64,000 nucleotides of DNA from an uncultured Nannocystaceae bacterium (GCA_964432695.1 CAYSPB010000001.1:30138-94137), one strand, 5' to 3'; shown: positions 1-48,804, counted from the first letter of the stretch. Translations and numbers: made by a program. The notes: generated by a model from the letters alone, not told the origin.

Positions 1-242
1 TTACGGCCAGGGCTGCAACGAGTCGTGAACGCGGAGCGAAGCGAGGGTGGCGAGCGCAGTACATCGTTCAAAACGATGTGTAGTTCGGGTCTTCCCCGGG
101 ATCCAATGATTGTCGGTCCCGATGCCGGCCAGTCGGTCGAATTATTGTAGGTGCAACAGGACGACGTGCGCCCCGAACGCAAGAACGCCAGCACCCGAAT
201 GGATGCTGGCGTCGTGAAGGGCTCCTGCGCAGAAAAGAGGGC

Positions 243-578
243 TCAGGCCGCCTTCGCGAGTGCGTCTTCAACCGAGTCGAAGATCGTGAAGACCTGGTCC
301 AGGCGCGTCAGCTCGAAGATTTTCTTCACCGCTGGACGCAAGCCAGCGAGCGTGACGTCGCCTTTTCCGACGCGAACCTGCTTGAACGTGCCGACCAGGA
401 CCCCCAGGCCCGAGCTGTCGACAAAGTCGACACCTTCGAGGTTGAAGAGGAAGTCGTTGTGGCCTTTCTCCAGAAGACCCGAGAGCTCTTTCTTGAGTGC
501 ACCCGAGCTGAACAGGTCGATGGAGCCCTGGACGGTAACGAGGACGTTGGTTTCTTTGATGTCGACTTCGACGCGCAT
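243..578 (-). CDS. STAS-domain anti-sigma-factor antagonist (SpoIIAA/RsbV/SypA-like)
   Basis: 111-aa ORF with the typical STAS layout and the phosphorylatable-serine motif VDFVDSSGLGVLVG. It is the last gene of the minus-strand operon, 12 nt after the preceding gene. Confidence 0.85.
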   Translation of the reverse strand: MRVEVDIKETNVLVTVQGSIDLFSSGALKKELSGLLEKGHNDFLFNLEGVDFVDSSGLGVLVGTFKQVRVGKGDVTLAGLRPAVKKIFELTRLDQVFTIFDSVEDALAKAA

Positions 579-590
579 TGTGGTGTTCCT

Positions 591-1418
591 TTACGGGTTG
601 GAGCCTCGGGTCATCGCAACGGCTGCGTCGACCAGGGGATAGAGTGACTCTGCGTGTTTGATGTGTTCGACGCTTTCCGCGAATTGCAAGTGGTGGCGGT
701 CGTTGACGCCCAGCGTCTCCAGAATGTCGTTTGTTTTGACCACCTCGACGGTTCCGCCCATGCTGCGGAGAATCTCGGGAACGTCGGTGAGGTAGTACTC
801 GCCCTGCGCGTTGTCGCAGTCGAGCAGTTCGAGGGCCGGGAGCAGCGTGTCGACGCGGAAGCAGTACATGCCCACGTTGATCTCCCGAATCTTCTTCTGC
901 TCGGCGGTGCAGTCCTGCTCTTCGATGACGCGCACGAACTTGCTCTCGTCATCTCGGATGATGCGGCCGGCCGCGGGCGGTGAGTCGAGCTCGATCGTGA
1001 GCAGCGAAGCATCGGCACCTCGCTCGAGCACCGCGGCTCCAAGGTTTCGGACCGACTCGGGGCTCATCATCGGCGCGTCTCCGTAGGCGACGATCACGGC
1101 ACCGCCCATCTCGGCCAGCGTGTCTTTGGCGACCATGACCGCGTGACCGGTTCCGCGCTGCTCGGTCTGGGTGACGTAGCGAAAACCGTCTCCGAGCTCG
1201 GCTTGAACCAGGTCGGCGCGGTAGCCTACGACGCAGCAGACTTCGTCGACGCCGCCATTGCGCAGCGCATCGATGGCGCGCCAGACCATGGGGCGGTCGT
1301 TGACGGGGTGGAGAACCTTCGGCAGGTCCGACTTCATGCGGGACCCTTTGCCGGCTGCCAATACGAGACCTGAAAGCTTCATCGTGTCCGTCGCTCCGAT
1401 ACGGTGTTCATCGGTCAT
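591..1418 (-). CDS. Sugar-1-phosphate nucleotidyltransferase, i.e. the GlmU N-terminal (UDP-GlcNAc pyrophosphorylase) domain only, with no LbH acetyltransferase domain
   Basis: Carries the signature LAAGKGSRMKSDLPKVLHPV, then GTGHAV and YGDAPM motifs. It is only about 275 aa, whereas full GlmU is about 450 aa. The ATG at 1418-1416 overlaps the upstream TGA (1417-1415) as ATGA. The rest of the 531-aa ORF upstream is Arg-rich shadow. An alternative start is the MKLSG ATG at 1382. Confidence 0.8.
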   Translation of the reverse strand: MTDEHRIGATDTMKLSGLVLAAGKGSRMKSDLPKVLHPVNDRPMVWRAIDALRNGGVDEVCCVVGYRADLVQAELGDGFRYVTQTEQRGTGHAVMVAKDTLAEMGGAVIVAYGDAPMMSPESVRNLGAAVLERGADASLLTIELDSPPAAGRIIRDDESKFVRVIEEQDCTAEQKKIREINVGMYCFRVDTLLPALELLDCDNAQGEYYLTDVPEILRSMGGTVEVVKTNDILETLGVNDRHHLQFAESVEHIKHAESLYPLVDAAVAMTRGSNP

Positions 1419-2803
1419 CCGTGGGCCAGCTTGAGCGCCCCGCGCTGGGTGGCCTGAAGCAGCATTTCGCCGACCGCGGCCCAGCTGTAGGGCTGTGCAA
1501 AGGCGCGGAGCGATCCACCCGCGGGACGAGCTTGGGCCGTTTCGAGTGCGGACACGACAGTCTGGGCCAGCTGGGTCACGACGCTGGCCGGGTGTGGGTC
1601 GACCAGCAGCGATCCGAGGGTTGCGTCGTGTTCCTGCACCTGGCGAAGCAGCCAACCCAGGCCCGAGGAGTCCGTGCCCACCGGGATGGCCGCGCAAGAC
1701 ACCGCCTCGAGGATCGAGAGCGGAAACGCCTCGGGCACGAGCGCTGGAAGTACGGCGACGTGGGCGGGGCCCAGGTGCTCGGCGCATCCGACTCGATCCA
1801 GGACACCGACGAAGCTGATCGAGCCGGCGGCCATTCGCGCGCGCTCGGCGTAGTCTCGAGGGGCACCGTTGATGAAGTGCTCCACCGGGTGGATCAAGGC
1901 ATGTCGTCCGGAGTCGACGCCCAGCGTTCTCAGCGGGTCGAGGAAGTCGCTCAGGCTGCCGCGGGTGAGGGCGTCGGCGGCGGCCTGAAGTGCTTCGCCG
2001 TCCTTGCCGCCGCCCGCGAGCCGCAGCTTCGCGTTGGGCACGCTGCGCCGGATCATCGGCCAGGCCGCCAGCAGCGCGTGGATGCCCTTGTCGAGGGTGA
2101 GGCGCCCGGCGTAGGCCACGGTGGGCTCGGCCGCCTTGGTCTGGGGAGAGAATAGCGAGAGGTCGACGCCGGGCGAGACTTCGCACAGCCGCGACTCGTG
2201 CTTGGGGAACAGCTCGACGATGCGCTCGCGAACGGCGTCGTTCAACGCGACCACGGCCGCGGCCGAGTACAGCGCCGCATCGACGCGGGCGGCCAAGGCC
2301 GGGATTCTACGAACGCCGTAGTGCAGTCCGGTGCCGTGGGAGATCACGGCCCAGGCGGTCCCCACCTGCCGCGCGAGGCGGTCCGCGACCTGACACAGCA
2401 GCGCGGTGTGGTTGACCAGGACCACGTCGACGTCGCGCAGCCGCACGATGTCGCGGGAGATCGAGGTCATTCGCGTCACGTAGTCATCCATCTCCTGGGC
2501 GGACCAATCCGCGATGACTCGGCCTCGGGAGAGTTCGGCTCGCGGATACATCACGGGAATCTCGCGGTCGGAGACCGCGTGGATCGTGAGTCGTCCGCCC
2601 GTTGAGCGGAGGTACGCGGTGCTGTTGGTGCCGTGGTTGTGGTGGATGATCGACGCGTTCGGATGCGAGGCGCGAAGGTCCTCGTCGTGGCAAAGCACGT
2701 CGACCGTGTGTCCGTTGCGGGCCAGGGCCTCGGCGAGGTCGCGCGTGTAGATCGCGCTGCCGGAACCGGTGAGGCCGTAGCCGTGAAGGATGAGAACGTT
2801 CAT
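1415..2803 (-). CDS. GT4-family (GT-B, retaining) glycosyltransferase
   Basis: Real start is MNVLILHGYG (ATG 2803-2801), which overlaps the upstream stop as ATGA. Has an EX7E motif (PEAFPLSILEAVSCAAIPVGTD) and an N-terminal glycine-rich GSGSAIY motif. Confidence 0.85.
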   Translation of the reverse strand: MNVLILHGYGLTGSGSAIYTRDLAEALARNGHTVDVLCHDEDLRASHPNASIIHHNHGTNSTAYLRSTGGRLTIHAVSDREIPVMYPRAELSRGRVIADWSAQEMDDYVTRMTSISRDIVRLRDVDVVLVNHTALLCQVADRLARQVGTAWAVISHGTGLHYGVRRIPALAARVDAALYSAAAVVALNDAVRERIVELFPKHESRLCEVSPGVDLSLFSPQTKAAEPTVAYAGRLTLDKGIHALLAAWPMIRRSVPNAKLRLAGGGKDGEALQAAADALTRGSLSDFLDPLRTLGVDSGRHALIHPVEHFINGAPRDYAERARMAAGSISFVGVLDRVGCAEHLGPAHVAVLPALVPEAFPLSILEAVSCAAIPVGTDSSGLGWLLRQVQEHDATLGSLLVDPHPASVVTQLAQTVVSALETAQARPAGGSLRAFAQPYSWAAVGEMLLQATQRGALKLAHG

Positions 2804-4086
2804 GAGGCGGCTCGTGAAGGCGTGGTGGGAAAGGCGTGGAGCAGGGAGAACTCGGTGCGCATGCGGGTCACGTCGAAGTGCCGCTGCACGCGAGTTCGGG
2901 CGGCGCGGCCCCAAACCGCGCGCTGCTGAGGGTTCGTGGCCAGCGTTCGCAGGGCCTCGAGAAGCGCATTGGGATTCCGGCTCACCACGCCACCGGGCGC
3001 GCCGAGGGCCGGATCGGACACCATGCGGCGGACGTCCCCGACGTCGGTCGCAAGGACGGGGATGCCCCGCGCCATGGCTTCGAGCACCGCCAAGGGCTGG
3101 GCCTCCAGATCGCTGGTGAGCACCAGGACCGATGCGTTTGCCAGCGCGTCGGGCATGGCACGTGGCCCCCGCCAGGTCACGGTCGGACTGCGATCGAGCC
3201 GGGCGCGCAGCCGCGCCTCTTCGCACGGCGGGCAGTCGAATGGACCGACTAGCTCACCGCGGATCGTCACATCGCTCGATGCCGCGTCGACGAGGTCCAC
3301 GAAGATGTCGGGACGCTTGATGGGGTTGAGTCGGCCGAGGAAGACGGCGGTGAACCGCTCGGGCGGTGGCGTGGTGCTCGACGGTACTTCCACCCCGTTG
3401 GCGATCACGCGGGCGCGTGCCGGGTCGAGGCCGCGCGCGACCTGGTCGGCCATGCGCTCGGGATACAGCGCCGTGACCATGTCGGCGCCCCGGTAGAGGT
3501 CGTGGCGAATCTGCTCGAAGGTGCCGAGCACGCCTTCGGCCTCGTCCCGCCGGACCATGCGGCCGGACTCGAGAAATGGGCTGCCTGCGCGAAGTTCCTC
3601 CACGTACGAGGCGTGCTCCGACACGATGAGGGGGCAGCCGCGGCGTTGGGCGGCGAGCCCAATCGCGGAAGCCAGGCCCGCACCGATCGCATGCACGACG
3701 CCGCCGGCGGGGATGCGCGCGGCAACGATGCGTGACCAGTCACGGACGCTCTCTTGGCTGAAGTCCGAGGGCTCGTCGACGCCCTCGAGAGACTCTACGG
3801 ACGAGGGGAGCGTGTAGGCCCATGTGTCTTCTGGTGGCAGGGCACCGATTCGAAGCACGCGGGCCGGCATCGAGCCTTGGAGGAGTAGGTCCATCCAGGT
3901 GGAGATGCCGCCCAGGGTCACCGGGTAGGTGCCCTCGAGGACGATCGTGGGTGTGGGTCGAACGAAGCTCACCGGCCACGATCCCTGTAGCGTCGGCTTT
4001 GGAGGCGACCACGGATCGCTGCGATCGAAAACGGGACGCCCCCGCGAGGTCAGGGACCAGGCGGGGGCGGATCGGTGCGTTTCCAT
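2800..4086 (-). CDS. GT4-family glycosyltransferase with a PelF-like N-terminal motif
   Basis: N-terminus has LEGTYPVTLGGISTWMDLL, matching the EGTYP..GG.S.W motif of PelF/DUF3492-type GT4 enzymes (family recalled from memory). Has an EX7E motif (DLEAQPLAVLEAMARGIPVLATDVGD). Start is uncertain: ATG at 4086, or an in-frame GTG at 3972 that would remove an odd R/P/W-rich leader. Confidence 0.8.
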   Translation of the reverse strand: METHRSAPAWSLTSRGRPVFDRSDPWSPPKPTLQGSWPVSFVRPTPTIVLEGTYPVTLGGISTWMDLLLQGSMPARVLRIGALPPEDTWAYTLPSSVESLEGVDEPSDFSQESVRDWSRIVAARIPAGGVVHAIGAGLASAIGLAAQRRGCPLIVSEHASYVEELRAGSPFLESGRMVRRDEAEGVLGTFEQIRHDLYRGADMVTALYPERMADQVARGLDPARARVIANGVEVPSSTTPPPERFTAVFLGRLNPIKRPDIFVDLVDAASSDVTIRGELVGPFDCPPCEEARLRARLDRSPTVTWRGPRAMPDALANASVLVLTSDLEAQPLAVLEAMARGIPVLATDVGDVRRMVSDPALGAPGGVVSRNPNALLEALRTLATNPQQRAVWGRAARTRVQRHFDVTRMRTEFSLLHAFPTTPSRAAS

Positions 4087-4119
4087 CGCGGGCCGCGATG
4101 GGCCAGCACTGAACGAATC

Positions 4120-5301
4120 TCATATCGCGACCGCGAGCAGCGAGAGGTCGTCGGGCGACTCGCGATCCTGCAGCAGCGTGCGTACCGTCAGGTCCACGAC
4201 GTTCTGCAGAGGTTCATCGAGATGGCTCGCAATGAGGTCCGCGAGCCGTGCTTCGCCGAACATCTCTCCATCGACCTCGAGCTCGGTGAGCCCATCGGTG
4301 AAGATGAACAAGCGGTCGCCCGGCTGAAGTGTGGTTTCGCCGTCCTCGAATGGCAGGCCGAGGCCCATGCCCACTGGAGGACCGCCACCGCCTGCAAGGC
4401 GGTCGAGGCTGCCGTCGGCGCGGAACAGCATCGGGGGTGGGTGTCCTCCACAGCAGTACCGCAGCACCCCGGTGCTCCGATCGAGGATGCAGTAGGCGAC
4501 GGTGAGATACGAATCCAGGCCGCGGCTCGAAATCTCATGATCGAGCATCGTGCAGACCTCGGCGGGCCCAGCGATGTCGAATATGTCGCCGACAGAGCGA
4601 CCTTCGAGCAGGGCCGATGCGATCGAGTAGGCCGGCGACAGCGACGTTGCGGCCCACGTCGCGACCAGTGACGCTGCGACCCCGTGTCCGCACACGTCGG
4701 CGACGAAGAAGGCGATCCTGTCGTCGTCGATACGCTGGACGTTGAGAAAGTCGCCTGCGAGTCCCTCGCAGGGTTGATAGGCATACGCTGCAGAAACGCG
4801 CGGAAGCTCGACGGGGTTGGGTGGCAGCAGACCCGCCTGAATCCGGCTCGCACACTCGATCTCTGCTCGCATGCGAGCGTTGGCGGTGAGAAGCTCGCGT
4901 TCGGCTTGCCGAAGACGCGCCAGTCGGCTCACGCGCGTACGGATCTCGGGGATGCGCAGGGGCTTGGGAATGTAGTCGTCGGCACCGCGGCGCAGGCCCG
5001 CTTGAATGTCCTGCGTCGAGCCGAGGGCGCTCGCGAGCAGAATGCGGGGGGCATCGGACCCGATGTTGTCTACGATGTGCGACACCAGGTCGAGTCCGCT
5101 GATGCCCGGCATCATGATGTCGAGCACCGCAACGTCGAACTCGGCGGCTCGTTCGTCGAGGATGGCCTTGGCTTCTTTGCCGTCTTTTGCGACTTCGACG
5201 TCGTAGCCGACCGAGGCCAGCGCCCGGGTGAGGATTTGACGAATGGTCGCCTCATCGTCGGCGATGAGCAGGCGACCGGCAGGCTTGGGGTCGTTGGGCA
5301 T
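4120..5301 (-). CDS. Response-regulator receiver fused to a PP2C/SpoIIE-type serine phosphatase (RsbU-like)
   Basis: N-terminal REC domain (LLIADDE..., VAVLDIMMPGISG, IPKP). C-terminal PP2C motifs are FFVADVCGHGVAASL, LFIFTDGLTE and DDLSLLAVAI. Confidence 0.9.
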   Translation of the reverse strand: MPNDPKPAGRLLIADDEATIRQILTRALASVGYDVEVAKDGKEAKAILDERAAEFDVAVLDIMMPGISGLDLVSHIVDNIGSDAPRILLASALGSTQDIQAGLRRGADDYIPKPLRIPEIRTRVSRLARLRQAERELLTANARMRAEIECASRIQAGLLPPNPVELPRVSAAYAYQPCEGLAGDFLNVQRIDDDRIAFFVADVCGHGVAASLVATWAATSLSPAYSIASALLEGRSVGDIFDIAGPAEVCTMLDHEISSRGLDSYLTVAYCILDRSTGVLRYCCGGHPPPMLFRADGSLDRLAGGGGPPVGMGLGLPFEDGETTLQPGDRLFIFTDGLTELEVDGEMFGEARLADLIASHLDEPLQNVVDLTVRTLLQDRESPDDLSLLAVAI

Positions 5302-5308
5302 GGCGCAC

Positions 5309-5758
5309 CTACGGAAGCGCCTTCTCGAGGATGACCACTTTTCCCAGCGGCTCGATGGTCTCGCGGTAGGAGATCGAGTCGGTCAAACTCTGCATCAAGA
5401 ACAACCCGCGCCCGGACTCCCCGTCCAGATCCGGGACGACGTTCTCGTCGGCCTGGCCGAACGCCTTGTCCGGGTTGGTGTCGTAGACGTAGATCCGCAC
5501 CATCGACTCGGCGCTCTCGAAGACGACCCGCGCGTCCCGTCCGTCCTGGTCGTGGGCGTGCCGAATGACGTTGGAAACGCATTCGGTCAGCGCGAGCATG
5601 AGCCCGAAGCCGACCTCGCCCTCCGCGTCGATGTCGAGCTGTTCCAAGAAGGCGCGGAACTTGTCCCGCACCATTGGGATCGATGCGTATTCGCTGGGGT
5701 ATTCGATCTCTACGCGAATCGCATCATATTCGGGGTCGACCGCACAGTTTGCTGCCAT
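5309..5758 (-). CDS. RsbW/SpoIIAB-like serine protein kinase (anti-sigma-type HATPase)
   Basis: 149 aa. Has an N-box-like ALTECVSNVIRHA and a G-box GESGRGLFLMQSLTD. Lies 7 nt upstream of the REC-PP2C gene. Confidence 0.8.
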   Translation of the reverse strand: MAANCAVDPEYDAIRVEIEYPSEYASIPMVRDKFRAFLEQLDIDAEGEVGFGLMLALTECVSNVIRHAHDQDGRDARVVFESAESMVRIYVYDTNPDKAFGQADENVVPDLDGESGRGLFLMQSLTDSISYRETIEPLGKVVILEKALP

Positions 5759-5818
5759 GAACGTTCCTTCGTGTCTCCTGGTTCTTCGGCCATCAGGACG
5801 CGGCGAACCAGGCTCAGA

Positions 5819-7807
5819 TCAGGCCGCTTCGCCATCTGTTTCGGGCTGCGGCAGGCTCCGCGACCGGCGGCGGATGTACCAAATGCCAGCGAGCACGAGC
5901 GACAGCACCCCGCCGAAGAACACGGGAAGGGGGACGGAACGCCATGCGGCCTGCGTTCTAGCGATCATGCGATCGAGCTCGGGCGTCGAACCGCTTGCGG
6001 AGGCGGCTTCGAGCCTGCCCTTCGCGTCGAACGCGAGCGAGAACCCCGGCGTTCCGAACACGGACACGAGGGCGCGGTGCGCAGCATCCCAATCGTCGGT
6101 GAGGACGACGAGCCCCGCCGCTCGCTCCTTGCTGAAGCGCCTCAGCCAAATGGCACCGACCGGTTCGAACGAGTCGGTCGGGGTGGGGACTTCGAGGGTG
6201 TCGTCGAGCCGCGCTGCGACCTGGGACCAGGCGACGCCGTCCTCCACCACGCCGAACATCATGAGGTGGCCTTCGGTGGGGGCGGGGTCGCTCGCGCTTG
6301 AAAGCTCGAACCGCGGCGCAGTCAGAGAGTCCGTACCGATGCGCATCGCCACGCTCGCCGCAAATCCGAGCGCGCCGTGGGGGCGGTCGTCGGCCAGCAC
6401 CACGTTCGTGGGGTGCTTGAGTCCCGAGCCGTTGAGGGGCGCCGGAAACGACTCGAGGTCGAGCACGGTGGGCTCGATCGGGGCGAGGTGCCAGCGGGAG
6501 CGCGGCTTGATCGTGATGAAGTCGGTTTCGCGCTCGGTGCATTCCTCATCGTCGTTGGAGCCGCCGCCGCCCTCGCTTTCGAACTTGAGCACGAAGTGAC
6601 GCAGAGGCCGGTTGGCGCCGTCTCGGTTGCCGGCTCGACCTCCAGGGAGCTCGAACACCGTCTCGTGAACACCTGGCTCCAGGCGAACGCGACCGAGCAC
6701 TTCGTCGCCGAGCGAGACCACCAGGACAGACCCTTCTGCGACGCCGGTCGGAACCGAGTAGGCGAGCGTGAGCGTGCTGTCCTCGTCGATGAGAATCGCG
6801 GGCGGTCGGTCGAAGTAGAACGTCTTCGGTACGCCCTTGACCAACGGGAAGAGGACATCCTGCAGGCCGAGGTCGGAGAAATGGACCGTCGTTGCAAGCC
6901 ACGGCGAGTTGCTTTCGGGCGGTGGCTCGCTGGCAAAGCGGCGCTGCGTCCCGACGCCGAGCTGGCTGCGACTGAAGATCCATCGCGCGACCAGGGCGGC
7001 AGCATCCGCGGAGTCGGCCTCGACGGTGAAGACCGACCAGGCGTCGTTCTCGGGGTGTGCCCGGACTGACAGCGAGGGGTTCGGGTCGGCGCTGGTGAGG
7101 TCGATGTCGACGAGGTGGCCCTTCGGCAGCGGAGCATCGGGGTCGAGCGGCTCGATGCGTACCGGGTTGGTGCCCGCATGCTTGCCGAGCGCGCCTGCGA
7201 GCTCCAAGAGCGCTCGCCTGTGCTCGTCGTCGGCGACGGCCATGCGCATGGCGACGCGCCGCAAGTCGCGTGCGCGCTGGGTGATGAGCGGGTAGGGGAA
7301 CTCGCCCAAGTTGTGCGCGGGCGGGCGCATGCTGTACTTCACCCGAATCGAAGAGTCTTCGTGCAACACCACGGTGCGCTCGTCGGGTTCGCAGTCCTCC
7401 TCGTGGGCCACGAACGCGACCTGGATGTGCAGGCCTTGCGGTGTAGGGGACTCGGGCGGAATTTCGACCATCAGCCGTCGAAACCGAGCATCTTCGCTTG
7501 GAAGCGCTTCGCGGTGTCGCTCCTTGCCATTGACCGTCACGACGAGTGCACCGGCGGTCTTGTTCGTGGCCTGCGCCAGCTTCGGCACGCTGTAGATCAC
7601 TTCTACCGACGAGCCGCGCTGCATCTCCCAGTCGCTCGGCAGCTCGTACCAGGCTTCGAACAGCGGCTCGTCGGCGGTCAGCATTGCCGCCGGGTACCCC
7701 AGGTCGCGGAAGATGCCGACGTCCTCGTACACGTCGCCTTCGGCGTGGGCCAGCCCGGCGCCAAAGAGCACCCAGACCCCCAGCATCCACGCGATGAGGC
7801 GGGTCAC
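5819..7807 (-). CDS. BcsB-like periplasmic polysaccharide-synthase accessory subunit (signal peptide, duplicated domain, C-terminal TM anchor)
   Basis: A GTG at 7807-7805 overlaps the upstream TGA as GTGA and gives the signal peptide VTRLIAWMLGVWVLFGAGLAHAEG. Two internal repeats share the pattern DLG ... YS.P ... V..NG/LG: FRDLGYP..VIYSVPKL..LVVTVNGKE and FSDLGLQ..LAYSVPTG..LVVSLGDEV. This is the pattern I associate with the two halves of BcsB. A single C-terminal TM (VPLPVFFGGVLSLVLAGIWYI) is followed by a basic tail. Family assignment is from memory only. Confidence 0.55.
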   Translation of the reverse strand: MTRLIAWMLGVWVLFGAGLAHAEGDVYEDVGIFRDLGYPAAMLTADEPLFEAWYELPSDWEMQRGSSVEVIYSVPKLAQATNKTAGALVVTVNGKERHREALPSEDARFRRLMVEIPPESPTPQGLHIQVAFVAHEEDCEPDERTVVLHEDSSIRVKYSMRPPAHNLGEFPYPLITQRARDLRRVAMRMAVADDEHRRALLELAGALGKHAGTNPVRIEPLDPDAPLPKGHLVDIDLTSADPNPSLSVRAHPENDAWSVFTVEADSADAAALVARWIFSRSQLGVGTQRRFASEPPPESNSPWLATTVHFSDLGLQDVLFPLVKGVPKTFYFDRPPAILIDEDSTLTLAYSVPTGVAEGSVLVVSLGDEVLGRVRLEPGVHETVFELPGGRAGNRDGANRPLRHFVLKFESEGGGGSNDDEECTERETDFITIKPRSRWHLAPIEPTVLDLESFPAPLNGSGLKHPTNVVLADDRPHGALGFAASVAMRIGTDSLTAPRFELSSASDPAPTEGHLMMFGVVEDGVAWSQVAARLDDTLEVPTPTDSFEPVGAIWLRRFSKERAAGLVVLTDDWDAAHRALVSVFGTPGFSLAFDAKGRLEAASASGSTPELDRMIARTQAAWRSVPLPVFFGGVLSLVLAGIWYIRRRSRSLPQPETDGEAA

Positions 7808-9795
7808 CGGCCCTTGCGCTTCTCTTCCCAAACCCGCGCCATGACCTCGCGCTCTTCTTCGACCGTACGGTGGATGTGGAACACCACGATCTCCTCGGTC
7901 TCGAAGTACACCGACATGTTGGTGTAGGTCTCCATGTACTCGCGACACCATGATTCCAGCGCAACGTTGTCATCGGCCCGAGCTTCAAAAGCCTGAACCG
8001 ATCGGTAGCGGACGTTGGGCGCGGTCTTCTCGACGAACAGGAACACATGCGCGGTTGGGACCGTCGTAGCGCTGTTCTGCGGGTCCCACTTGTACGACTC
8101 CACGTCGAACTTCTCGAGGAAGTCCCCACGCGGGATCGACCAGCCTTCGCCTTCGACGTGCGTGGACAGCTCGGGGTGCGCAACCATGGTCCACTCGCCT
8201 GCGACGAACTCCTCCTTGATCTGATAGGCGGCGCCCAGGGTCGTTTCGGGCTCCATGCGCGCGTCGACCTCGCTGAACGAGGGGGGCGCGAAGATCAACA
8301 CGCCGATGACACCCGCGATCCCCGGGAGCTGTCGAAGCGGGCGCAGCGTGAGCACCCGGAACATCCGTCCCATCGGCATCGAGACCATGTCGTACAGGAC
8401 GTCGAAACCAAGTCCGACCACGACGGAGGCCAACGGCACGAGCAGCGCCATCACCCCGTCGGTGGACAGCATGGGCAGCCCGGTTTTGGGCAGCGAGAAC
8501 AGGGACCACGCGAAGAGGAATGCGAGGCAGGGGACGTCGATGCGGAAGTCCCGGCCGGCTTTCATCTTCATCTGGCGCACGCGGAAGAGCGTGGCCAGGG
8601 CGAAGGCCCCTGCGGCGAGCATGAGGGGTGCCTGCGCGATCTTGGGATCGGGCGCGCGCGGAGCGAGCGTCTCTCGGACCACGTCGAGGGCACCGTGTCC
8701 GAGGCCGAACCCGAGCACTTCGGCGATGAGGCCCCAACCCAGCGGCACCAGCGTGGCGACGATGCCGTAGCCAGCACACCGCGCGAGCATGCCGACGCCG
8801 CCCTTGCGAAACGACAGTTCACCCGTGGCGGCTGCGGCGAGGGCTGCCAAGCCGAGCGCGAGGCTGAGCGGGTGCACCGAGGCGAGCAGGACCAGCAGGC
8901 CCAGCGAGATGCGCTTGGGCCACGGTCCCTCTTGGCTGCCACTGAGCGATGCGACGAGCATGATGAAGAAGGGCGCTGCGAACGTGTAGGCGTGCAGTGC
9001 GGCTTCGGACTCCAGCACTGGAAGCAGCGGTCCGGACGTCGCAAAAGCACACAGCGCCGCGGCGATGGTGGCCCCACCGCTCCTTCGCGTGGGTGCGCGC
9101 AGGCGCACCGACAGGGCGTACACGGCCGTGGTCGTCAGCAAGGACCACGTGGTTCCCAGCACGCCCCACAGCAACATCTGGTCGACGCGCGAGAGCGTGT
9201 AGACGACCAGCGCAAACGCATGTGCACCCAGCGGGTAATAGCCGGATGCGAGCACCTCACCAGCGCCCAAGCGTTTGAGCCGCATGATGTTCTCGTGTGC
9301 GCGGGAGGAGTCCGGGTACGGATAGTCCAAGAAGGCGCTGTAGCGAACGAACAGCAGCGCACCGAGGATGAGCAGGAACGGTGCGTGATCGATGAGCCCA
9401 CCGACGATGCCCGCGGTGCGGTCGCCCAGTTTGGACCGGATCTTCGCCAGCGCCGCGTCCCGGATGCGGACCAGCTCGGCGCGCCCGCCGTCCAGAAGGT
9501 CGTAAACGACGATCTGAAGGCGGTCGCTGCCACGGAGCTCTCCTTCGGCAGGCTTCTTTCTACGGCTCAGTCCGACGCCGATGATGATGAGCGAACCGAT
9601 GAGCGAAACCCCGTCGAAGAGGTTCAGCAGCGTCAGCACATGCACCAACGCCACCAAGACCAGTACCAGCCGTCCCGCTTGCTGCGGCAAGGTGGCTTTG
9701 GTCAGCTCGCGCTCTTTTCCGAGCACGATTCCGGGTACCACGAAGAGGAGCAGTCCTCCCCAAAGCAGTACGCGGATGATTCCGTTGGCGATCAC
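7804..9795 (-). CDS. Polytopic inner-membrane protein (about 13-15 TM) with a roughly 150-aa C-terminal soluble domain; function unknown
   Basis: 663-aa ORF with a GTG start. Hydrophobic throughout until about residue 500. G/C-rich third positions support this frame over the Arg-rich alternatives. It is the first gene of the minus-strand operon and is translationally coupled to the BcsB-like gene. Confidence 0.75.
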   Translation of the reverse strand: MIANGIIRVLLWGGLLLFVVPGIVLGKERELTKATLPQQAGRLVLVLVALVHVLTLLNLFDGVSLIGSLIIIGVGLSRRKKPAEGELRGSDRLQIVVYDLLDGGRAELVRIRDAALAKIRSKLGDRTAGIVGGLIDHAPFLLILGALLFVRYSAFLDYPYPDSSRAHENIMRLKRLGAGEVLASGYYPLGAHAFALVVYTLSRVDQMLLWGVLGTTWSLLTTTAVYALSVRLRAPTRRSGGATIAAALCAFATSGPLLPVLESEAALHAYTFAAPFFIMLVASLSGSQEGPWPKRISLGLLVLLASVHPLSLALGLAALAAAATGELSFRKGGVGMLARCAGYGIVATLVPLGWGLIAEVLGFGLGHGALDVVRETLAPRAPDPKIAQAPLMLAAGAFALATLFRVRQMKMKAGRDFRIDVPCLAFLFAWSLFSLPKTGLPMLSTDGVMALLVPLASVVVGLGFDVLYDMVSMPMGRMFRVLTLRPLRQLPGIAGVIGVLIFAPPSFSEVDARMEPETTLGAAYQIKEEFVAGEWTMVAHPELSTHVEGEGWSIPRGDFLEKFDVESYKWDPQNSATTVPTAHVFLFVEKTAPNVRYRSVQAFEARADDNVALESWCREYMETYTNMSVYFETEEIVVFHIHRTVEEEREVMARVWEEKRKGR

Positions 9796-9955
9796 GGACG
9801 AGGGTTCCGAATCGATCCATCGGCTTTTCCCGGGGGTACCGCGAGCCCAGATCTGAAACCTTCAAGACTCGAATCGGGCCGCGGGATCTCGAAACGACCC
9901 CTTGCCGGTCGGCTGTCCGATCCACACGAGAGGTTCTCCCCAGGAGGACACCACC

Positions 9956-11803
9956 ATGTGCGGCATCGTTGGATACATCGGATTTCGGAACGGCGTGACC
10001 GAGTGCCTCAAGGGCCTCGAGCGCCTCGAGTACCGCGGCTATGACTCGTCGGGCGTTGCGGCCATCGACATGAGCGGTCAGCTCGAGGTCAATCGAGCGG
10101 TCGGCGGCGTCGCAAACCTCACCGAGAAGGTCGAGCAAGCCCAGCAGCTCGGTCGCACGGCGATTGGCCACACCCGCTGGGCCACGCATGGCGAGCCGGC
10201 GGAGCACAACGCCCACCCTCATGTGGACTGCACCGGCCAGTTCGCGGTCGTGCATAACGGCATCATCGAGAACCACGCTGCGCTGCGCGCCGAGCTGAAG
10301 CTCAAGGGGCATCAGTTCCAATCCGACACCGACACCGAGGTCATCGCGCACCTCGTCGAGGAGAACTACGACGGGGACCTGCTTGAGGCGGTCAAGGTCT
10401 CGGCCGAGCGTCTGCGTGGGACCTACGGTTTTGCGGTCGTGCACGCCACCGACGACGACGAGTCGGAGATCGTCACCACTCGCCGTGGCAGTCCGCTCGT
10501 GGTTGGGCTCGGTGATGACGAGGCGTTCCTCGCTTCGGACGTGGTCGCGGTTCTCAACCGCACCCGTCAGGTCCTCTTCTTGGAGGATGGGGACTTCGCG
10601 GTGCTCAAGCGCAACTCGGTCGAGCTGTTCGACCAGAGCGGCGCAAAGGTTTCGCGCGAGATCACCGAGGTGGAATGGTCGGCCGAAGCGGCGGAGCGCG
10701 GGGGCTACGAGCACTTCATGCGCAAGGAGATCGGCGAGCAGCCCAGCACCCTCGAGCGGATCTGTACCGGCCGCGTCAGCACCGACGAAGCCGGTCGCCG
10801 GAGTGTCGACCTGCCCGAGATGAAGGCGCTGTTCGACGACGCCGAGCCGCCCACCCGCATGGCGGCGGCATCTTGCGGGACCTCGTATCACGCCAGCCTC
10901 GTGGCCAAGTGGTACATGGAGCGACTCGCGAAGATCCCGACGGACGTCTATATCGCCTCGGAGTTTCGGTACGAAGAACCGCTGCTCGAGCAGACCGACG
11001 CCTTCTTGTCGGTCAGCCAGTCCGGCGAAACCGCGGACACGCTCGCCTCGCTCGACCTCGCACGCGGGACCGAGCTCAAGTCGCTGGCGATCTGCAACGT
11101 CATCGGGAGCCGGCTTTGTCGCGAAGCCGATGCGACCATCTTGACGCAGGCGGGTCCGGAGGTTGGGGTCGCATCGACCAAGGCGTTCTCGTCGCAGGTC
11201 ATCGCCGGCCTGCTCGTTGCGCTCGACCTCGGCCTTCGCAAGGGCACCGTCACCCCGGATCAGGCGGACACGGTTCTCGCCGACCTCGAGAAGCTGCCCG
11301 ACTATGTCCGCGCGGTCCTCGACCAGGAGGCGCACATCGAAGCCATTGCCAAGAAGCACGCGAACGCCCGAGCGTTCCTGTTCCTCGGCCGCGGTGTGCA
11401 GGTGCCCGTTGCGCTGGAGGGTGCGCTCAAGCTCAAGGAAATCTCCTACACCCCGGCCGAAGGCGGGGCGGCCGGAGAGATCAAGCACGGGCCCATCGCC
11501 CTCATCGACCCTGAGGTGAGCACCATCTTCCTGGCCACGCCCTCGCCCACGCACGACAAGCTCATGGCGAACATATCGGCGATTGCTGCGCGCAAAGGTC
11601 CGATCATCGCCGTGGCCGTCGAGGGCACCCAAAACCTCGAAACGCTGGCTGAAGACGTCATTACTGTGCCGCACGCCAGCGCAGAGCTCCAGCCGGTCGT
11701 GAACACGGTCGCGCTGCAGCTGCTCAGCTATCACGTCGCGCGGGCACTCGACCGCGAGATCGACAAGCCTCGCAACCTCGCCAAGAGCGTCACGGTAGAG
11801 TAG
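9956..11803 (+). CDS. glmS: Glutamine--fructose-6-phosphate aminotransferase
   Basis: Starts MCGIVGYIG (Cys2 nucleophile) with the SD sequence CAGGAGGA 8 nt upstream. Has SIS-domain motifs (SQSGETADT) and the C-terminal KPRNLAKSVTVE. 615 aa. Confidence 0.97.
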   Translation: MCGIVGYIGFRNGVTECLKGLERLEYRGYDSSGVAAIDMSGQLEVNRAVGGVANLTEKVEQAQQLGRTAIGHTRWATHGEPAEHNAHPHVDCTGQFAVVHNGIIENHAALRAELKLKGHQFQSDTDTEVIAHLVEENYDGDLLEAVKVSAERLRGTYGFAVVHATDDDESEIVTTRRGSPLVVGLGDDEAFLASDVVAVLNRTRQVLFLEDGDFAVLKRNSVELFDQSGAKVSREITEVEWSAEAAERGGYEHFMRKEIGEQPSTLERICTGRVSTDEAGRRSVDLPEMKALFDDAEPPTRMAAASCGTSYHASLVAKWYMERLAKIPTDVYIASEFRYEEPLLEQTDAFLSVSQSGETADTLASLDLARGTELKSLAICNVIGSRLCREADATILTQAGPEVGVASTKAFSSQVIAGLLVALDLGLRKGTVTPDQADTVLADLEKLPDYVRAVLDQEAHIEAIAKKHANARAFLFLGRGVQVPVALEGALKLKEISYTPAEGGAAGEIKHGPIALIDPEVSTIFLATPSPTHDKLMANISAIAARKGPIIAVAVEGTQNLETLAEDVITVPHASAELQPVVNTVALQLLSYHVARALDREIDKPRNLAKSVTVE

Positions 11804-11808
11804 TCGCC

Positions 11809-12753
11809 ATGTACATCATCACAGGCGGCGCAGGCTTCATCGGTTCGCAGCTCGTCCGCGACTTGCTCGCGGAAGGCGAGCGAGTGGTGGTGCTGGACAA
11901 CTTTTCCACGGGGCAGCGGTCGAATCTCGCAGGGCTCGACACCGAGCGGCTCGCGACCATCGAGACGAACATTGCCGATGGCCTCTGGCCGGGCATGTCC
12001 CAAGTGGACCCCTCGTGGGGCAAGCCCAAAGCGATCGTGCACCTTGCGGCCCAGGTCGCGGTGGTGGCTTCGGTCGCCAACCCGCTCGACGATGTGCGGC
12101 TCAACTACGCCACCACGATGCACGTCCTCGAGTACGCGCGCTTCTCGGGGGCACCGCGCATCGTGTTCGCCTCTTCGGCGGCGACGTACGGCAACCTCGA
12201 TACCGTCCCGCTCACCGAAGAGATGGCGCGATGGCCCGTGAGCCCCTACGGCATCAACAAGTTCGGGTCGGAGATGTGCCTTCGGTACTACGCCGAAGTC
12301 CACGGCGTGCCCACGGCGTCGCTTCGATTCTTCAACGTCTACGGACCGCGTCAGGACCCCAGCAACCCATACTCGGGCGTCATCTCGATCTTCATGCAGC
12401 GCGCCCTCGACGGGGAGCGCATCACGATCTTCGGGGATGGCGAGCAGACCCGCGACTTCGTCTACGTCGGCGACGTGTCCCAGGCGATTCGGCGTGCGGC
12501 CTCCGAAGACTTCGGCGGCGACGTGTTCAACGTCGGGACTTCCACCGAAACCACGGTCAACCAGCTCGCGCAGACCATTGCGCGACAGTGCAACAGCACG
12601 TCCGAGATCCTCCACGCGCCTGCACGCAAGGGCGAGATTCTGCGTTCCAGCGCCAACATCTCCGCCGCCCGCGAAAAGCTCGGCTTCGATCCCAAGATGA
12701 GCCTCGAATCGGGCCTGCAGCACACGTTGGACTGGTTTCGCAGCACGCGCTGA
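11809..12753 (+). CDS. NAD-dependent SDR epimerase/dehydratase, probably a UDP-hexose/UDP-HexNAc 4-epimerase
   Basis: Has the Rossmann motif ITGGAGFIGS and a YGINK catalytic Y-x3-K. 314 aa, 5 nt after the glmS stop. Substrate is not determinable from sequence alone. Confidence 0.85.
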   Translation: MYIITGGAGFIGSQLVRDLLAEGERVVVLDNFSTGQRSNLAGLDTERLATIETNIADGLWPGMSQVDPSWGKPKAIVHLAAQVAVVASVANPLDDVRLNYATTMHVLEYARFSGAPRIVFASSAATYGNLDTVPLTEEMARWPVSPYGINKFGSEMCLRYYAEVHGVPTASLRFFNVYGPRQDPSNPYSGVISIFMQRALDGERITIFGDGEQTRDFVYVGDVSQAIRRAASEDFGGDVFNVGTSTETTVNQLAQTIARQCNSTSEILHAPARKGEILRSSANISAAREKLGFDPKMSLESGLQHTLDWFRSTR

Positions 12754-12768
12754 CCCAGATGATCTTCG

Positions 12769-14394
12769 ATGCCTCCCGACGGCACGATCGGCGAACTCGA
12801 TGAACGTCAGCGGGCGTTCGAAGAGCGGCGCGCAGAGACCCGGGAGAAGGTGATCGAAAAAGTCGGGTGGCCGCTCGATGCCTGGGCGGTCGCCGCGACG
12901 CTGGAGAGCTTCGGTCTGCGAGACGTCGATGCCGAGGAGCAGTTCGGCTCCGGGAGCATCTTCCACCTCGCAGAGACCATCTACGAGGAGATTTACAGCG
13001 GGCCTTCGGAGGCGACCGAGCTCAAGGCGATGGAGTCCCTCACGCCGTGGGCCCGCCTCAAGTCGTTCGTCGTGCACTACTGCAAGGGCACGTTGTTCGC
13101 GATGCCCATGGCGACGCAGATCGCCGCGGTACTCATTCTTCGCTACTCGCTGTGGGCGTGGCTCGACTTCTCGAACCTCGAAGCGACGCTGGTGGCGCTG
13201 GGCACGATCGCGAGTTTCGTCGTCACGGGGGGCTTCATTCAGGCGATCGGCCGCGAGGGCACCTTCTACTCCGGGCAGAAGAACTGGAAGCTGCTCGAGG
13301 AGGTCTGTCGTCTCATCATCCTGACGGGCACCGGATTGATGCTCGCGGTCGTGATCGGCTTCTGCGTGTTCAACCTGTTCGTGCCGGTGCTCGCGTGGCG
13401 CTACGCGGTGGTCTCGCTGACCTACTTCGTGCTGCTGTCACCGATGTGGTTGTTTCTCGGCGTGTTGTTCATGCTTCAGGACAACCTCGCGATCGTCATC
13501 ACGACGTCCGTCGGCACCGTCGCCGTGCACCTGATGATGACGTACACCTCGTTCGGGATCTACGCTGCGCACTGGGTCGGCTTGGCCGTGACGAACACGG
13601 TTGCCTGTGGCTACGGCGCGTTCCGCATTCGCAAGCGCCGCAAAGAGCTCGAGAAGCGCTTCGAGAAATCGCTGCTGCCTCGTTCTTCGGTGCTGCTGTA
13701 CATCGTGCTGCCGTTCCTCGTGTACGGGGTGCTGTACTTTACCTTCCTCAATGCCGACCGGATCATCGGCTGGTCGGCGGCGCGGGGGTACTTGCCGCTG
13801 GTGATCTGGTTTCGCACCCCGTACGAGCTGGGCATGGACTGGGCGCTGCTCAGCCTCGTGTTCACGATCGCCGTCCTCGAGTATTCGGTCAACGAGTTCA
13901 GCCGCACGATCATCCCGGTGCAAGAGTCGACGAAGGCTGCCGACTACAAGGAGCACAATCGACACTATCAGCGCTTCTACAACCGGCAGCGCATCATGCT
14001 GGCCGTTGTCGCGGTGATCAGCATCGCCATCACCTACTTTGGCGTGCGGTCGCTGGAGCGCTTCGATCACATCAAGGAGGTGCGTGACTTCTTCGCCAGC
14101 CCGATCACCTATGAGGTGTTCTGGTATGCGGCCATTTCGTACTCCTTGCTCGCGCTGGGCCTACTCAACTCACTGTTCTTTTTCTCGTTGGCCCGCCCGA
14201 ACGTCGTGGTGGCCTGCATTTGGCCGGCGTTGTTGACGAATGTGGTGGTCGGCTACGTCGCCAGTCGCATGATCTCTTTCGAGTACAGCGTGCTCGGCTT
14301 GCTCGCCGGGAGTCTGGTGTTCGCGATTCTCACCTCCCGCCGCGCCGCGACGCTCTTCCGCACGCTCGACTTCTACTACTACTCCGCTTTCTGA
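12769..14394 (+). CDS. Polytopic membrane protein (about 12 TM); candidate polysaccharide exporter from context (PelG/flippase-like role is a guess)
   Basis: 541 aa. A roughly 90-aa cytoplasmic N-terminus is followed by hydrophobic segments to the C-terminus. Sits between the epimerase and the GAF-HD-GYP gene. I recognised no catalytic motif. Confidence 0.6.
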   Translation: MPPDGTIGELDERQRAFEERRAETREKVIEKVGWPLDAWAVAATLESFGLRDVDAEEQFGSGSIFHLAETIYEEIYSGPSEATELKAMESLTPWARLKSFVVHYCKGTLFAMPMATQIAAVLILRYSLWAWLDFSNLEATLVALGTIASFVVTGGFIQAIGREGTFYSGQKNWKLLEEVCRLIILTGTGLMLAVVIGFCVFNLFVPVLAWRYAVVSLTYFVLLSPMWLFLGVLFMLQDNLAIVITTSVGTVAVHLMMTYTSFGIYAAHWVGLAVTNTVACGYGAFRIRKRRKELEKRFEKSLLPRSSVLLYIVLPFLVYGVLYFTFLNADRIIGWSAARGYLPLVIWFRTPYELGMDWALLSLVFTIAVLEYSVNEFSRTIIPVQESTKAADYKEHNRHYQRFYNRQRIMLAVVAVISIAITYFGVRSLERFDHIKEVRDFFASPITYEVFWYAAISYSLLALGLLNSLFFFSLARPNVVVACIWPALLTNVVVGYVASRMISFEYSVLGLLAGSLVFAILTSRRAATLFRTLDFYYYSAF

Positions 14395-14403
14395 GTTCCG
14401 CCA

Positions 14404-15942
14404 ATGAGCTTCTTCCAAGCCGTTGTTCCTCTGTCCGAGAGCGTCGCTCGCCTGCTGACCAAGCAGCGCGGCGAGCCTTCGTTCGAGGACGTGCTCGAAG
14501 CGTTTCGCAAGGAGCTCGACGTGCTCGCGATCGGTTGGTACCGACGCAACCGTGGCTCATATGAGCTGGTCGTCGGCCTGCAGCCCGAGCCTGAACCCGA
14601 GGAGGCCGGGCCGAAGGAAGTTCCCGGTGGGCGGTTCTTTGCCCGCCGAGAGCCGCCCCCGATGCACGAGGAGAACGACCAGCACCCGCTGATCGATGGC
14701 GATGCGGAGCTGCGGCTCCAGCTGCCGGGCAGCGACGACTATCTGGGTCTCAACCTCGTCGGCGCCCTTGCGCGACCGCACCTTGTCACCCCGTTTGCGG
14801 GTGGGCTGCTGGTGATGGGCAGCTTCGCCTCACGCTCGCTGGCCAAGAAGGCCAAGCAGCGCTGGGACGAGAGCGCCGCAACGCTGCAGATCATCGGCAG
14901 GAGTGCGCTCGACCGTGCCGACCACCAAAGTGAAGTGACTCGACTCGAGGGTCGACTGCGCACCGCGAATCGAACCATTGCCTCCGCGCTCGACATGGGC
15001 GCTCTGTTCAAAGCGTTGTTGTCTGTAGCCGCCCGGGCGAGCCGTCACCAAGGGGCCTTCATCGGACGACGCGATGGCGACGGTTTCGTGCTTCGGACCC
15101 AGTACGGCCTCGACGACGTCGTTGGTGGCCTGGTCGGGCAACGTGTCGACGGCACGCTGTTCGACCTCGAGATGGTGATGGACGAGCCGATCATCGTCCC
15201 CAAGGACCTCTCGGAGCTGACGGGGATGGGTGTGGATTCGCTGCTGGCCTTTCCCATCCTCAACGACGGAGAGCTGGCCGGCGTGCTCGGACTGGTGAAC
15301 TCCAAGCGCAAGGCGGGCGTGCAAGACGGCGACTACGGCCTATTGGCGTCGTTCACCGAGCAGATCTCACGGGTGATGGCCCGCGAGATCGAGGTCGTCG
15401 CGTTCGGGAACACCTACTTCGACACGCTGCAGGCGCTGTGTCGCGCCCTCGACTTGGCGCGCGGTTGTGAAGGGCACCACGAGCGCGTCTCCAACCTCGC
15501 GGCTCAGATGGCTGCCGCCGACGGTCTCGACGAACGCAGCGTCGATTTGCTGCGCCGCGCGGGTTTGGTGCACGACGTCGGACTCGTGCAAGCCGCCGGC
15601 GGTTCTCGCGACGTGCAGACCGAGTTCGGTCACCCCACGCTCGGCGCACTTCTGGCTGGCCCGCTGCGCGACGGGGCGGAGCTCGCAGCGCTCATTCGCG
15701 AGCACCACGAGACCGACGACGGCTTCGGGTTTCCCGACGCGCTCGAGCAAGACAACCTGGCGCCGCTCGGGCGGTACCTCGCTTTGTCCGAGTACATCGT
15801 CGAACGCATGACGGGCAACCAGATTTCCGAAGGGCTCGATGCCGACGCGATGCGGGCCGAGCTTCTGCGAGCCGATGCACGCTTCAGCAAGCATCTGCGC
15901 GAGGTGGCAGCCAAGCAGCTGCGTGCACTCAAGGTGGCCTGA
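14404..15942 (+). CDS. GAF-domain protein with a C-terminal variant HD-GYP domain (c-di-GMP phosphodiesterase or receptor)
   Basis: HD-GYP metal-ligand pattern is present: HHERV ... LVHDVGL ... GHPTLGALL ... EHHETDDGFGFPDAL. The usual HDxGK lysine is Leu and GYP reads GFP. A central GAF-like region is present (AFPILNDGELAGVLGLVN). Confidence 0.75.
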   Translation: MSFFQAVVPLSESVARLLTKQRGEPSFEDVLEAFRKELDVLAIGWYRRNRGSYELVVGLQPEPEPEEAGPKEVPGGRFFARREPPPMHEENDQHPLIDGDAELRLQLPGSDDYLGLNLVGALARPHLVTPFAGGLLVMGSFASRSLAKKAKQRWDESAATLQIIGRSALDRADHQSEVTRLEGRLRTANRTIASALDMGALFKALLSVAARASRHQGAFIGRRDGDGFVLRTQYGLDDVVGGLVGQRVDGTLFDLEMVMDEPIIVPKDLSELTGMGVDSLLAFPILNDGELAGVLGLVNSKRKAGVQDGDYGLLASFTEQISRVMAREIEVVAFGNTYFDTLQALCRALDLARGCEGHHERVSNLAAQMAAADGLDERSVDLLRRAGLVHDVGLVQAAGGSRDVQTEFGHPTLGALLAGPLRDGAELAALIREHHETDDGFGFPDALEQDNLAPLGRYLALSEYIVERMTGNQISEGLDADAMRAELLRADARFSKHLREVAAKQLRALKVA

Positions 15943-26856: not shown

Positions 26857-26859
26857 CGC

Positions 26860-31205: not shown

Positions 31206-31246
31206 CCGGACGTACCGTTGCCCCTTTGAAGGAGGGCCAGATTTCT

Positions 31247-42944: not shown

Positions 42945-43105
42945 GCAGGTACAGCGTAGGTTGCATGGCCGCCGCCGGCCACGGCGCAACGCTCGGCGGT
43001 GTTTCGATGGCGATGCAACGGCGTTCCCGGCCCGCAGCATCCCGAGAAGGCCGAACAGCTTGCCCAGGCCGTCCCCATATGGTTCCTTTGCCCCGCGTTT
43101 GCTCC

Positions 43106-48775: not shown

Positions 48776-48804
48776 CGCGCCATGCTCCAGGTTACCCTCC
48801 CCAC

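Follow-up and report, generated by a model that had tools for sequence, protein, structure and literature searches.

In Vibrio fischeri, the partner switch SypE/SypA exerts its output below the level of transcription, with no sigma factor (PMC8256260, PMC4517449, PMC12369376). Upstream of it, HahK, a kinase under the control of the nitric oxide (NO) sensor HnoX, sets the activities of SypG and SypE together with SypF (PMC12369376). In Anabaena PCC 7120, the REC-SpoIIE protein HenR and the RsbW-like kinase Alr3423 set the state of a STAS serine, directly governing the glycosyltransferase All4160 (PMC13555669; preprint 10.64898/2026.04.08.717354). This system also has no sigma factor, and its cognate histidine kinase is not known (PMC13555669). 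Such sigma-independent switches on matrix polysaccharides are known from few model organisms, and the molecular target of SypA is still unknown. Here we describe a set of partner-switching genes in a stretch of DNA from an uncultured bacterium of the Nannocystaceae, in the phylum Myxococcota (GCA_964432695.1 CAYSPB010000001.1:30138-94137; the whole stretch of 64,000 nucleotides [nt] is referred to as the window). A STAS protein, an RsbW-like kinase, and a phosphatase composed of a receiver (REC) and a PP2C domain are encoded there in a polysaccharide operon, and this arrangement is both real and conserved.

The gene calls were those of an identical public metagenome contig (L001) and agreed with the open reading frames (ORFs) of the window. 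Eight genes on the minus strand, between positions 243 and 9795, formed an operon that is transcribed from the gene of a 663-amino-acid (aa) membrane protein toward the STAS gene. The gene order was Mem663-BcsB-RsbW-PP2C-PelFs-GT4-GlmUN-STAS, as follows.

7804-9795, minus strand: polytopic membrane protein (Mem663), 663 aa, recognized by hydropathy; first gene of the operon
5819-7804, minus strand: BcsB-like periplasmic protein, 661 aa (Pfam BcsB, 4e-18)
5309-5758, minus strand: RsbW-like GHKL kinase, 149 aa (Pfam HATPase_c_2, 2.7e-16)
4120-5301, minus strand: REC-PP2C/SpoIIE phosphatase, 393 aa (Pfam Response_reg, 1.5e-23; SpoIIE/PP2C, 4e-41)
2800-3972, minus strand: short PelF-type glycosyltransferase of family GT4 (PelFs), 390 aa (Pfam partial DUF3492 and GT4; NCBIfam PelF)
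1415-2803, minus strand: GT4 glycosyltransferase, 462 aa, with the EX7E motif present (Pfam Glyco_trans_1_4, Glycos_transf_1, and Glyco_trans_4_4)
591-1418, minus strand: GlmU-N-type sugar-1-phosphate uridylyltransferase (GlmUN), 275 aa (Pfam NTP_transf_3/NTP_transferase)
243-578, minus strand: single-domain STAS protein, 111 aa (Pfam STAS, 5e-24); last gene of the operon
177-230, minus strand: GC-rich hairpin with a 12-bp core at 185-212, after the STAS stop codon

Neighboring genes overlapped by 4 nt or were spaced by 7 to 60 nt. The sole exception was the gap of 33 to 147 nt before the PelF-type glycosyltransferase; the start of this protein was placed at 3972 in the public gene call (390 aa), and an alternative ATG at 4086 would yield 428 aa. 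The hairpin 3' of the STAS stop codon folded as RNA with an energy of -40.8 kcal/mol (z score of -4.59), and 0 of 200 shuffled sequences were as stable. This hairpin probably marks the end of the operon, although it went unscored in a consensus terminator scan because its T tract is weak. A consensus scan of positions 1 to 10100 revealed no sigma-70-type promoter. An Rfam scan of the whole window returned no RNA family and, therefore, no riboswitch or glmS ribozyme. An earlier note on this DNA had placed three partner-switching components in one operon with three sugar-pathway enzymes, with the STAS gene set apart from the kinase and phosphatase genes by the GT4 and nucleotidyltransferase genes. 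All of its coordinates and domain calls held against Pfam, and the gene order agreed with it. The DSSGL phosphoserine motif that it had described as intact in the STAS protein was found as DSSGLG and was invariant across orthologues.

The serine in question, S55, aligned with S58, the phosphoserine of SpoIIAA. The STAS protein is the predicted phosphoacceptor, at S55, and the predicted output of the switch. The RsbW-like kinase contains an N box (E59, N63, and H67), D93, and a G2 box (G116-x-G118), and is predicted to phosphorylate S55. Its family is tiny, with only six representatives (at 50% identity) at E<=1e-10 among 1.84 billion; its weaker relatives include proteins of ~520 to 590 aa that carry the kinase at either end. 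In the phosphatase, the receiver residues D15, D16, D61, and K113 were invariant in eight homologues, as were the metal-binding aspartates of the PP2C domain (D184, D202-x2-GHG, D336-G, and D384-D385). The protein matched the REC-PP2C structure 3eq2 of P. aeruginosa (PA2798) over its full length (7e-32). It scored below the cutoffs of the Pseudomonas equivalogs, with 133 bits versus 700 for RssB (NF045505) and 57 versus 700 for SiaA. We predict that it removes the phosphate from the STAS protein and that phosphorylation of D61 gates this activity.

We then evaluated how the switch is arranged in relatives. A first tier of loci was obtained by tracing REC-PP2C orthologues with 41 to 55% identity to their contigs. 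At L006, L007, and L106, the gene order was PelFs-GT4-STAS-Big1174-Cys-RsbW-PP2C-Mem663-GlmUN, where Big1174 is a large protein (here of 1100 to 1190 aa) and Cys is its Cys-rich lipoprotein partner, both described below; the genes of an epimerase, a 541-aa membrane protein (Mem541), and a GAF-HD protein were divergent. L005, the closest relative, showed synteny with the window on either side and had a reduced set of RsbW-PP2C-PelFs-STAS only, with divergent GlmS and epimerase genes. A second tier, reached through STAS proteins with ~50% identity, comprised L099/L100, where a single HATPase_c_2-REC-SpoIIE protein of 583 aa is followed by STAS. This fused protein was collinear with the two proteins of the window, showing 39% identity to the kinase and 36% to the REC-PP2C phosphatase. 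Its gene neighbors encode GlmU-N, GT4, the short PelF-type glycosyltransferase, Mem541 (53%), GAF-HD, and the long PelF (63%).

The short PelF-type glycosyltransferase was present in L005, L006, L007, L106, L099, and L091, and it was the only structural enzyme that accompanied the switch in every locus with the full triad. Co-occurrence of the module with the PelF-type glycosyltransferase, GT4, and GlmU-N in several independent metagenomic lineages, despite rearranged gene orders, supports its dedication to the sugar cluster, very probably as a switch that turns this polymer on and off. A purely fortuitous neighborhood, in which the switch would serve some unrelated process (motility or general stress, for example), has some precedent: STAS/RsbW pairs occur in housekeeping contexts too, and both REC-PP2C homologues with 35 to 38% identity and a third-tier STAS protein (L102) were found in unrelated contexts. 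However, at five or more distinct loci the triad has remained linked to the same set of cluster genes, in three gene orders and one fusion, and the switch genes are translationally close packed in the operon. Since the unrelated contexts involve REC-PP2C homologues with less than 40% identity, the linkage is specific to this orthologue group. We therefore regard chance adjacency as highly improbable. Such switches also recur in other types of polysaccharide clusters, as indicated by L104 (3688-6743), where a STAS protein with 39% identity is encoded in a REC-PP2C - STAS - RsbW-like - Wza (Poly_export) operon with two divergent GT4 genes. A contig scan with the REC-PP2C alignment, which carries generic receiver and PP2C motifs, produced no orthologue among the matches listed, the best of which had 30% identity.

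Likened by architecture, the V. fischeri switch also consists of an RsbW-like kinase, a receiver, and a PP2C domain, with a single-domain STAS protein bearing a DSSG-type serine as the substrate, and it is encoded inside a polysaccharide locus, as in the window and its relatives. NCBIfam gave no SypE hit for the window. The domain order of SypE is collinear with the kinase to REC-PP2C gene order of the window. SypE is one polypeptide, whereas the window has two adjacent genes and the L099/L100 relative has them fused; the earlier claim that the functions of SypE are split into two genes here is borne out by this collinear fusion. The surroundings differ: syp belongs to a Vibrio host and has Wza/Wzc-type export and a sigma-54 regulator, whereas the window belongs to Myxococcota and has PelF-type GT4 enzymes, a BcsB-like protein, and membrane proteins that fall into no family. 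The earlier note had named syp as the closest described precedent. With the Anabaena HenR/Alr3423/All4160 system (PMC13555669), syp is not the sole close precedent any more. The REC-SpoIIE and RsbW-like architecture of HenR and Alr3423 is common to the window. In All4160, however, STAS is fused to a phosphoglycosyl transferase of the Bac_transf type, and the genes of that system are dispersed, as opposed to the stand-alone 111-aa STAS protein, single operon, and GT4-type enzymes found here. No Bac_transf domain was present in the window, and the STAS-Bac_transf fusion is rare outside cyanobacteria according to its authors (PMC13555669).

In our estimate, the chance is slightly better than even that a sigma-independent partner switch of the SypE/SypA type provides local on/off control of a PelF-type exopolysaccharide cluster based on N-acetylhexosamine (HexNAc), with an output through STAS that acts after transcription. 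The RsbW-like kinase would phosphorylate the STAS protein on S55, and the PP2C domain would remove this phosphate, with an activity set by phosphorylation of receiver D61 from a histidine kinase or phosphorelay. The STAS protein, and not a sigma factor, would be the output, one of its phospho-states binding a component of the cluster and permitting polymer synthesis. The active form would be unphosphorylated, by analogy. The best candidate target may be the short PelF-type GT4, either by itself or as part of a complex that includes the second GT4 and the uridylyltransferase. We infer the kinase-substrate pairings, the active phospho-form, the STAS target, and the input signal, and by analogy also the post-translational action of unphosphorylated STAS on the polymer machinery. 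The strongest single argument that the phosphorylation state of STAS is the output comes from the fused kinase-REC-PP2C protein found in this cluster family. With the kinase permanently joined to the phosphatase that opposes it, such a protein would modify one substrate in both directions, which is how SypE has been described (PMC8256260).

The obvious alternative is a canonical partner switch whose sigma factor is encoded elsewhere, with the RsbW-like protein as anti-sigma factor, the STAS protein as its antagonist, and transcriptional control of the cluster or of a wider regulon. The Bacillus systems RsbU-RsbV-RsbW and SpoIIE-SpoIIAA-SpoIIAB share with the window the same three folds, the phosphoserine motif, and the antagonism of kinase and phosphatase. 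The STAS protein was closest to SpoIIAA/RsbV, whose structures it matched at 1e-15 to 7e-14, and it passed the anti-sigma-antagonist superfamily model (TIGR00377, 88.6 bits versus a cutoff of 53.45). The kinase weakly matched RsbW, including the RsbW structure 6m36, and SpoIIAB. Myxococcota genomes also encode many sigma factors. On the other hand, the kinase scored far below the RsbW/SpoIIAB equivalog cutoffs (NF003144, 26.5 bits versus 145; TIGR01925, 24 versus 135; TIGR01924, 21.5 versus 155), its lineage is small and specific to these clusters, the phosphatase is receiver gated, and the operon lacks a sigma gene. In addition, the kinase and REC-PP2C of L099 form one protein, like SypE, which is described as phosphorylating and dephosphorylating SypA, with no sigma partner reported (PMC8256260).

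The sigma gene content of the window and related loci bears on the same question. Essentially every ORF of appreciable size in the 64-kb window was scanned against Pfam. The STAS, RsbW-like, and PP2C families were each represented by one gene, and the sigma-70 family by a single gene as well, that of an extracytoplasmic function (ECF) sigma factor at 28404-29102, ~20 kb away. On the same strand, this gene is immediately followed by genes encoding a eukaryote-like Ser/Thr kinase and a TPR protein; the three occupy 26176-29102 (minus strand), and the ECF sigma gene therefore looks like part of a separate unit. The scan thus agreed with the earlier note that neither the operon nor its divergent partner contains a sigma gene and that the ECF sigma gene belongs to another unit. 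No sigma-70-family gene was listed in the Pfam tables within 10 kb on either side of the switch in L005, L006, L007, L106, L099, and L104; thus, sigma genes in cis are absent from the related loci. When the ECF sigma factor was used as a phmmer query, no counterpart turned up in these six loci or in L091. Based on its distance, its Ser/Thr kinase/TPR unit, and the lack of a counterpart near related loci, this ECF sigma factor was rejected as the partner of the switch. RsbW-type anti-sigma factors are not known to control ECF sigma factors. Altogether, we consider control through a sigma factor encoded elsewhere to be unlikely. Further Ser/Thr kinase genes were found at 42887-46174, 48610-50616, and 50609-52513.

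Relatives of the window suggest a possible input to the receiver. H-NOX (HNOB) genes with an adjoining histidine kinase were found beside the switch at the following positions.

L006, 14198-16415: H-NOX and histidine kinase
L007, 14204-16409: H-NOX and histidine kinase
L106, 14288-16493: H-NOX and histidine kinase
L099, 5675-8066: H-NOX and histidine kinase
L100, 920-1465: H-NOX and histidine kinase

The H-NOX-linked kinase came either with a single-domain receiver or as a HisKA-HATPase-REC-Hpt protein, and this neighborhood parallels the HnoX-HahK input of V. fischeri. In the relatives, the phosphate on D61 would most likely come from the neighboring H-NOX-associated kinase. The earlier note had suggested a search for the histidine kinase cognate to the receiver. 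In the 64 kb of the window, no H-NOX gene was found, and the only histidine kinase was a REC-HisKA-HATPase protein (32668-34335).

The GlmU-N-type protein aligned with the NCBIfam GlmU models only at profile positions ~3 to 245 of ~450, the acetyltransferase half being absent. It was 56 to 66% identical to its counterparts in related clusters and is predicted to supply UDP-HexNAc. The GT4 enzyme at 1415-2803 had orthologues with 33 to 47% identity in L006, L007, and L099. The short PelF-type glycosyltransferase scored 129 bits against the NCBIfam PelF model NF038011 (cutoff of 100) over profile positions 167 to 485, and its alignment with the long paralogue showed that it lacks two insertions present in full-length PelF. 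By hydropathy, the BcsB-like protein has a signal peptide and a C-terminal transmembrane anchor; it had only one homologue in 5.8 billion proteins. Its gene is translationally coupled to the 663-aa gene by a 4-nt overlap, and the cluster has no BcsA/GT2 synthase. The earlier note had suggested control of "the synthase", but the cluster contains no GT2 of the synthase type. The 663-aa protein has ~10 to 12 transmembrane helices followed by a C-terminal soluble domain, again by hydropathy. It gave no match in Pfam, NCBIfam, or PDB, and its orthologues in L006, L007, and L091 were 30 to 35% identical.

The divergent genes on the other side of the operon start continue the cluster.

9956-11803, plus strand: GlmS, 615 aa, starting at MCGIVGY (Pfam GATase_6/7 and SIS)
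11809-12753, plus strand: GalE-like NAD-dependent epimerase/dehydratase (Pfam Epimerase, 2e-53; NCBIfam GalE, 177 bits, below the cutoff)
12769-14394, plus strand: polytopic membrane protein, 541 aa, of no family; 50 to 66% identical in related clusters
14404-15942, plus strand: soluble protein with GAF and HD-GYP-type domains (Pfam GAF, HD, and HD_5)
15946-17640, plus strand: full-length PelF-type GT4, 564 aa (Pfam DUF3492, 9e-38, and Glycos_transf_1; NCBIfam PelF, 169 bits versus 100)

The long PelF was 63 to 64% identical in L091 and L099, and a PDB sequence search with the 541-aa membrane protein gave nothing usable. The resemblance to the Pel system is partial. Two GT4 enzymes of the window pass the PelF equivalog, a GAF protein adjoins the long PelF, and genes for UDP-HexNAc supply are present, but neither Pfam nor NCBIfam detected PelA, PelB, PelC, PelD, PelE, or PelG in the window cluster, which has additional BcsB-like, 663-aa membrane, and 1174-aa proteins. 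The last of these is encoded just past position 1 of the window, downstream of STAS, where L001 (15224-19380) contains the genes of the 1174-aa protein (Big1174) and the Cys-rich lipoprotein. Proteins of the Big1174 type (1100 to 1200 aa) have DGDGDPN-like and FAVFGNVF motifs and belong to no Pfam or NCBIfam family; the lipoprotein has ~200 aa and a lipobox, LLTAC. In related loci, this pair directly followed the STAS, PP2C-RsbW, or BcsB-like gene. Elsewhere in the window, an ORF at 31226-31645 (plus strand) had a low GC content at codon positions 1 and 2 (0.40 and 0.38), matched the histone H1-like protein HC2 weakly, and probably encodes a Lys/Ala-rich nucleoid protein.

The GAF-HD gene lies between the gene of the 541-aa membrane protein and that of the long PelF, which is the position of PelD in pel operons. 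PelD is a transmembrane-GAF-GGDEF protein, whereas the window protein is soluble and combines GAF with HD-GYP. Its motifs were HHE...HD...HHEx3DGxGFP, with GFP replacing GYP, and its HD region matched that of the NosR-family phosphodiesterase for cyclic di-GMP (c-di-GMP) in NCBIfam at 2e-13, making it a candidate enzyme or receptor of c-di-GMP. The conservation of this protein in the window, L006, L091, and L099 raises the prospect that the switch works through c-di-GMP, with a phospho-form of STAS binding the divergent GAF-HD-GYP protein, or a diguanylate cyclase elsewhere, and the level of c-di-GMP controlling the PelF-type machinery. Such a route would resemble HsbA-HsbD and SiaC-SiaD of Pseudomonas aeruginosa, and the PP2C domain is weakly similar to SiaA. 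H-NOX systems, moreover, classically feed c-di-GMP enzymes. Against it, no GAF-HD gene lies within 10 kb in L005, where the switch and the short PelF-type glycosyltransferase are retained, and no GGDEF gene was found at any of the loci. We judge a c-di-GMP route to be decidedly unlikely. The P. aeruginosa systems HptB-HsbR-HsbA, SiaABCD, and PA2798/PA2797 (RssB/RssC) are likewise sigma-independent or noncanonical switches of PP2C, GHKL, and STAS-like proteins that act on the biofilm matrix. Their outputs run through FlgM, diguanylate cyclases, or RpoS, and their genes lie outside the polysaccharide operon; Pseudomonas RssB shares only its architecture with the REC-PP2C protein of the window.

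Several observations weigh against local control of the polymer machinery by the STAS protein. The G1 box of the window kinase (residues 93 to 97) reads DTNPD, without the usual Gly, where orthologues have DSG, DSA, or DTGPG; the protein may have little kinase activity or serve chiefly for binding, and its competence as a kinase in this genome is probable rather than certain. The short PelF-type glycosyltransferase of L005 (11228-12382) carries HX7E in place of EX7E, and its N-terminal EGTYP...GG loop motifs are gone. Although retained beside the switch, this enzyme may be catalytically inactive, and with such degenerate motifs a purely catalytic target of STAS is not guaranteed. None of the best 120 STAS relatives was fused to a glycosyltransferase, all being single-domain proteins, so a GT4 target lacks Rosetta-stone support. 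The analysis covered one 64-kb window of the genome, and a sigma factor could be encoded elsewhere. Finally, a metagenome scan was anchored independently on the Big1174 and lipoprotein pair. In L091 (4262-9121), the cluster PP2C protein has an N-terminal domain of ~310 aa and of no known identity in place of REC, and is followed by the RsbW-like gene, which immediately precedes that of the large protein; beside this cluster, no STAS protein of the stand-alone kind was detected. In L004, the contig (only 6.7 kb) of the one homologue of the BcsB-like protein, the BcsB-like gene is directly followed by Big1174 with no switch between them, and therefore the block of six genes from the RsbW-like gene to STAS is absent at that position. 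A gene for a SulP-family transporter, a type of protein that usually has a STAS domain at its C terminus, lies 1.4 kb upstream in L091.

A bolder version of local control by the STAS protein is possible but doubtful. It would be an undescribed surface-polymer system of the Myxococcota type, its output gated post-translationally from H-NOX through a histidine kinase and a split or fused SypE-like enzyme to STAS, which would bind the truncated PelF paralogue directly. Its parts would be the two PelF-type GT4 enzymes, the GAF-HD-GYP protein at the PelD position, the BcsB-like protein, the two family-less polytopic membrane proteins, and the 1174-aa protein with its Cys-rich lipoprotein.

A partner switch that acts on a polysaccharide without a sigma factor is an established concept, reinforced in 2026 by a direct glycosyltransferase target. 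What is new here is the host phylum, the type of cluster, the occurrence of both split and fused enzymes in a single cluster family, and the repeated presence of H-NOX genes next to the switch. We found no paper linking PelF-type clusters with STAS proteins or partner switching. The Anabaena-type switch of STAS on a glycosyltransferase was thought to be largely cyanobacterial, and a comparable arrangement is now seen in Myxococcota with a stand-alone STAS protein. Since these organisms are uncultured, tests must be heterologous and the immediate impact is limited. The natural variation of the cluster family could nevertheless narrow down the target, as it includes split and fused enzymes, versions with or without H-NOX input, and a minimal set of only four genes (kinase, REC-PP2C, short PelF-type glycosyltransferase, and STAS). 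If the proposed H-NOX-gated system is true, a route from NO or oxygen to STAS to a glycosyltransferase would be a recurrent, phylum-spanning design rather than a peculiarity of Vibrio or cyanobacteria, and it would provide a candidate answer for the class of target on which SypA acts.

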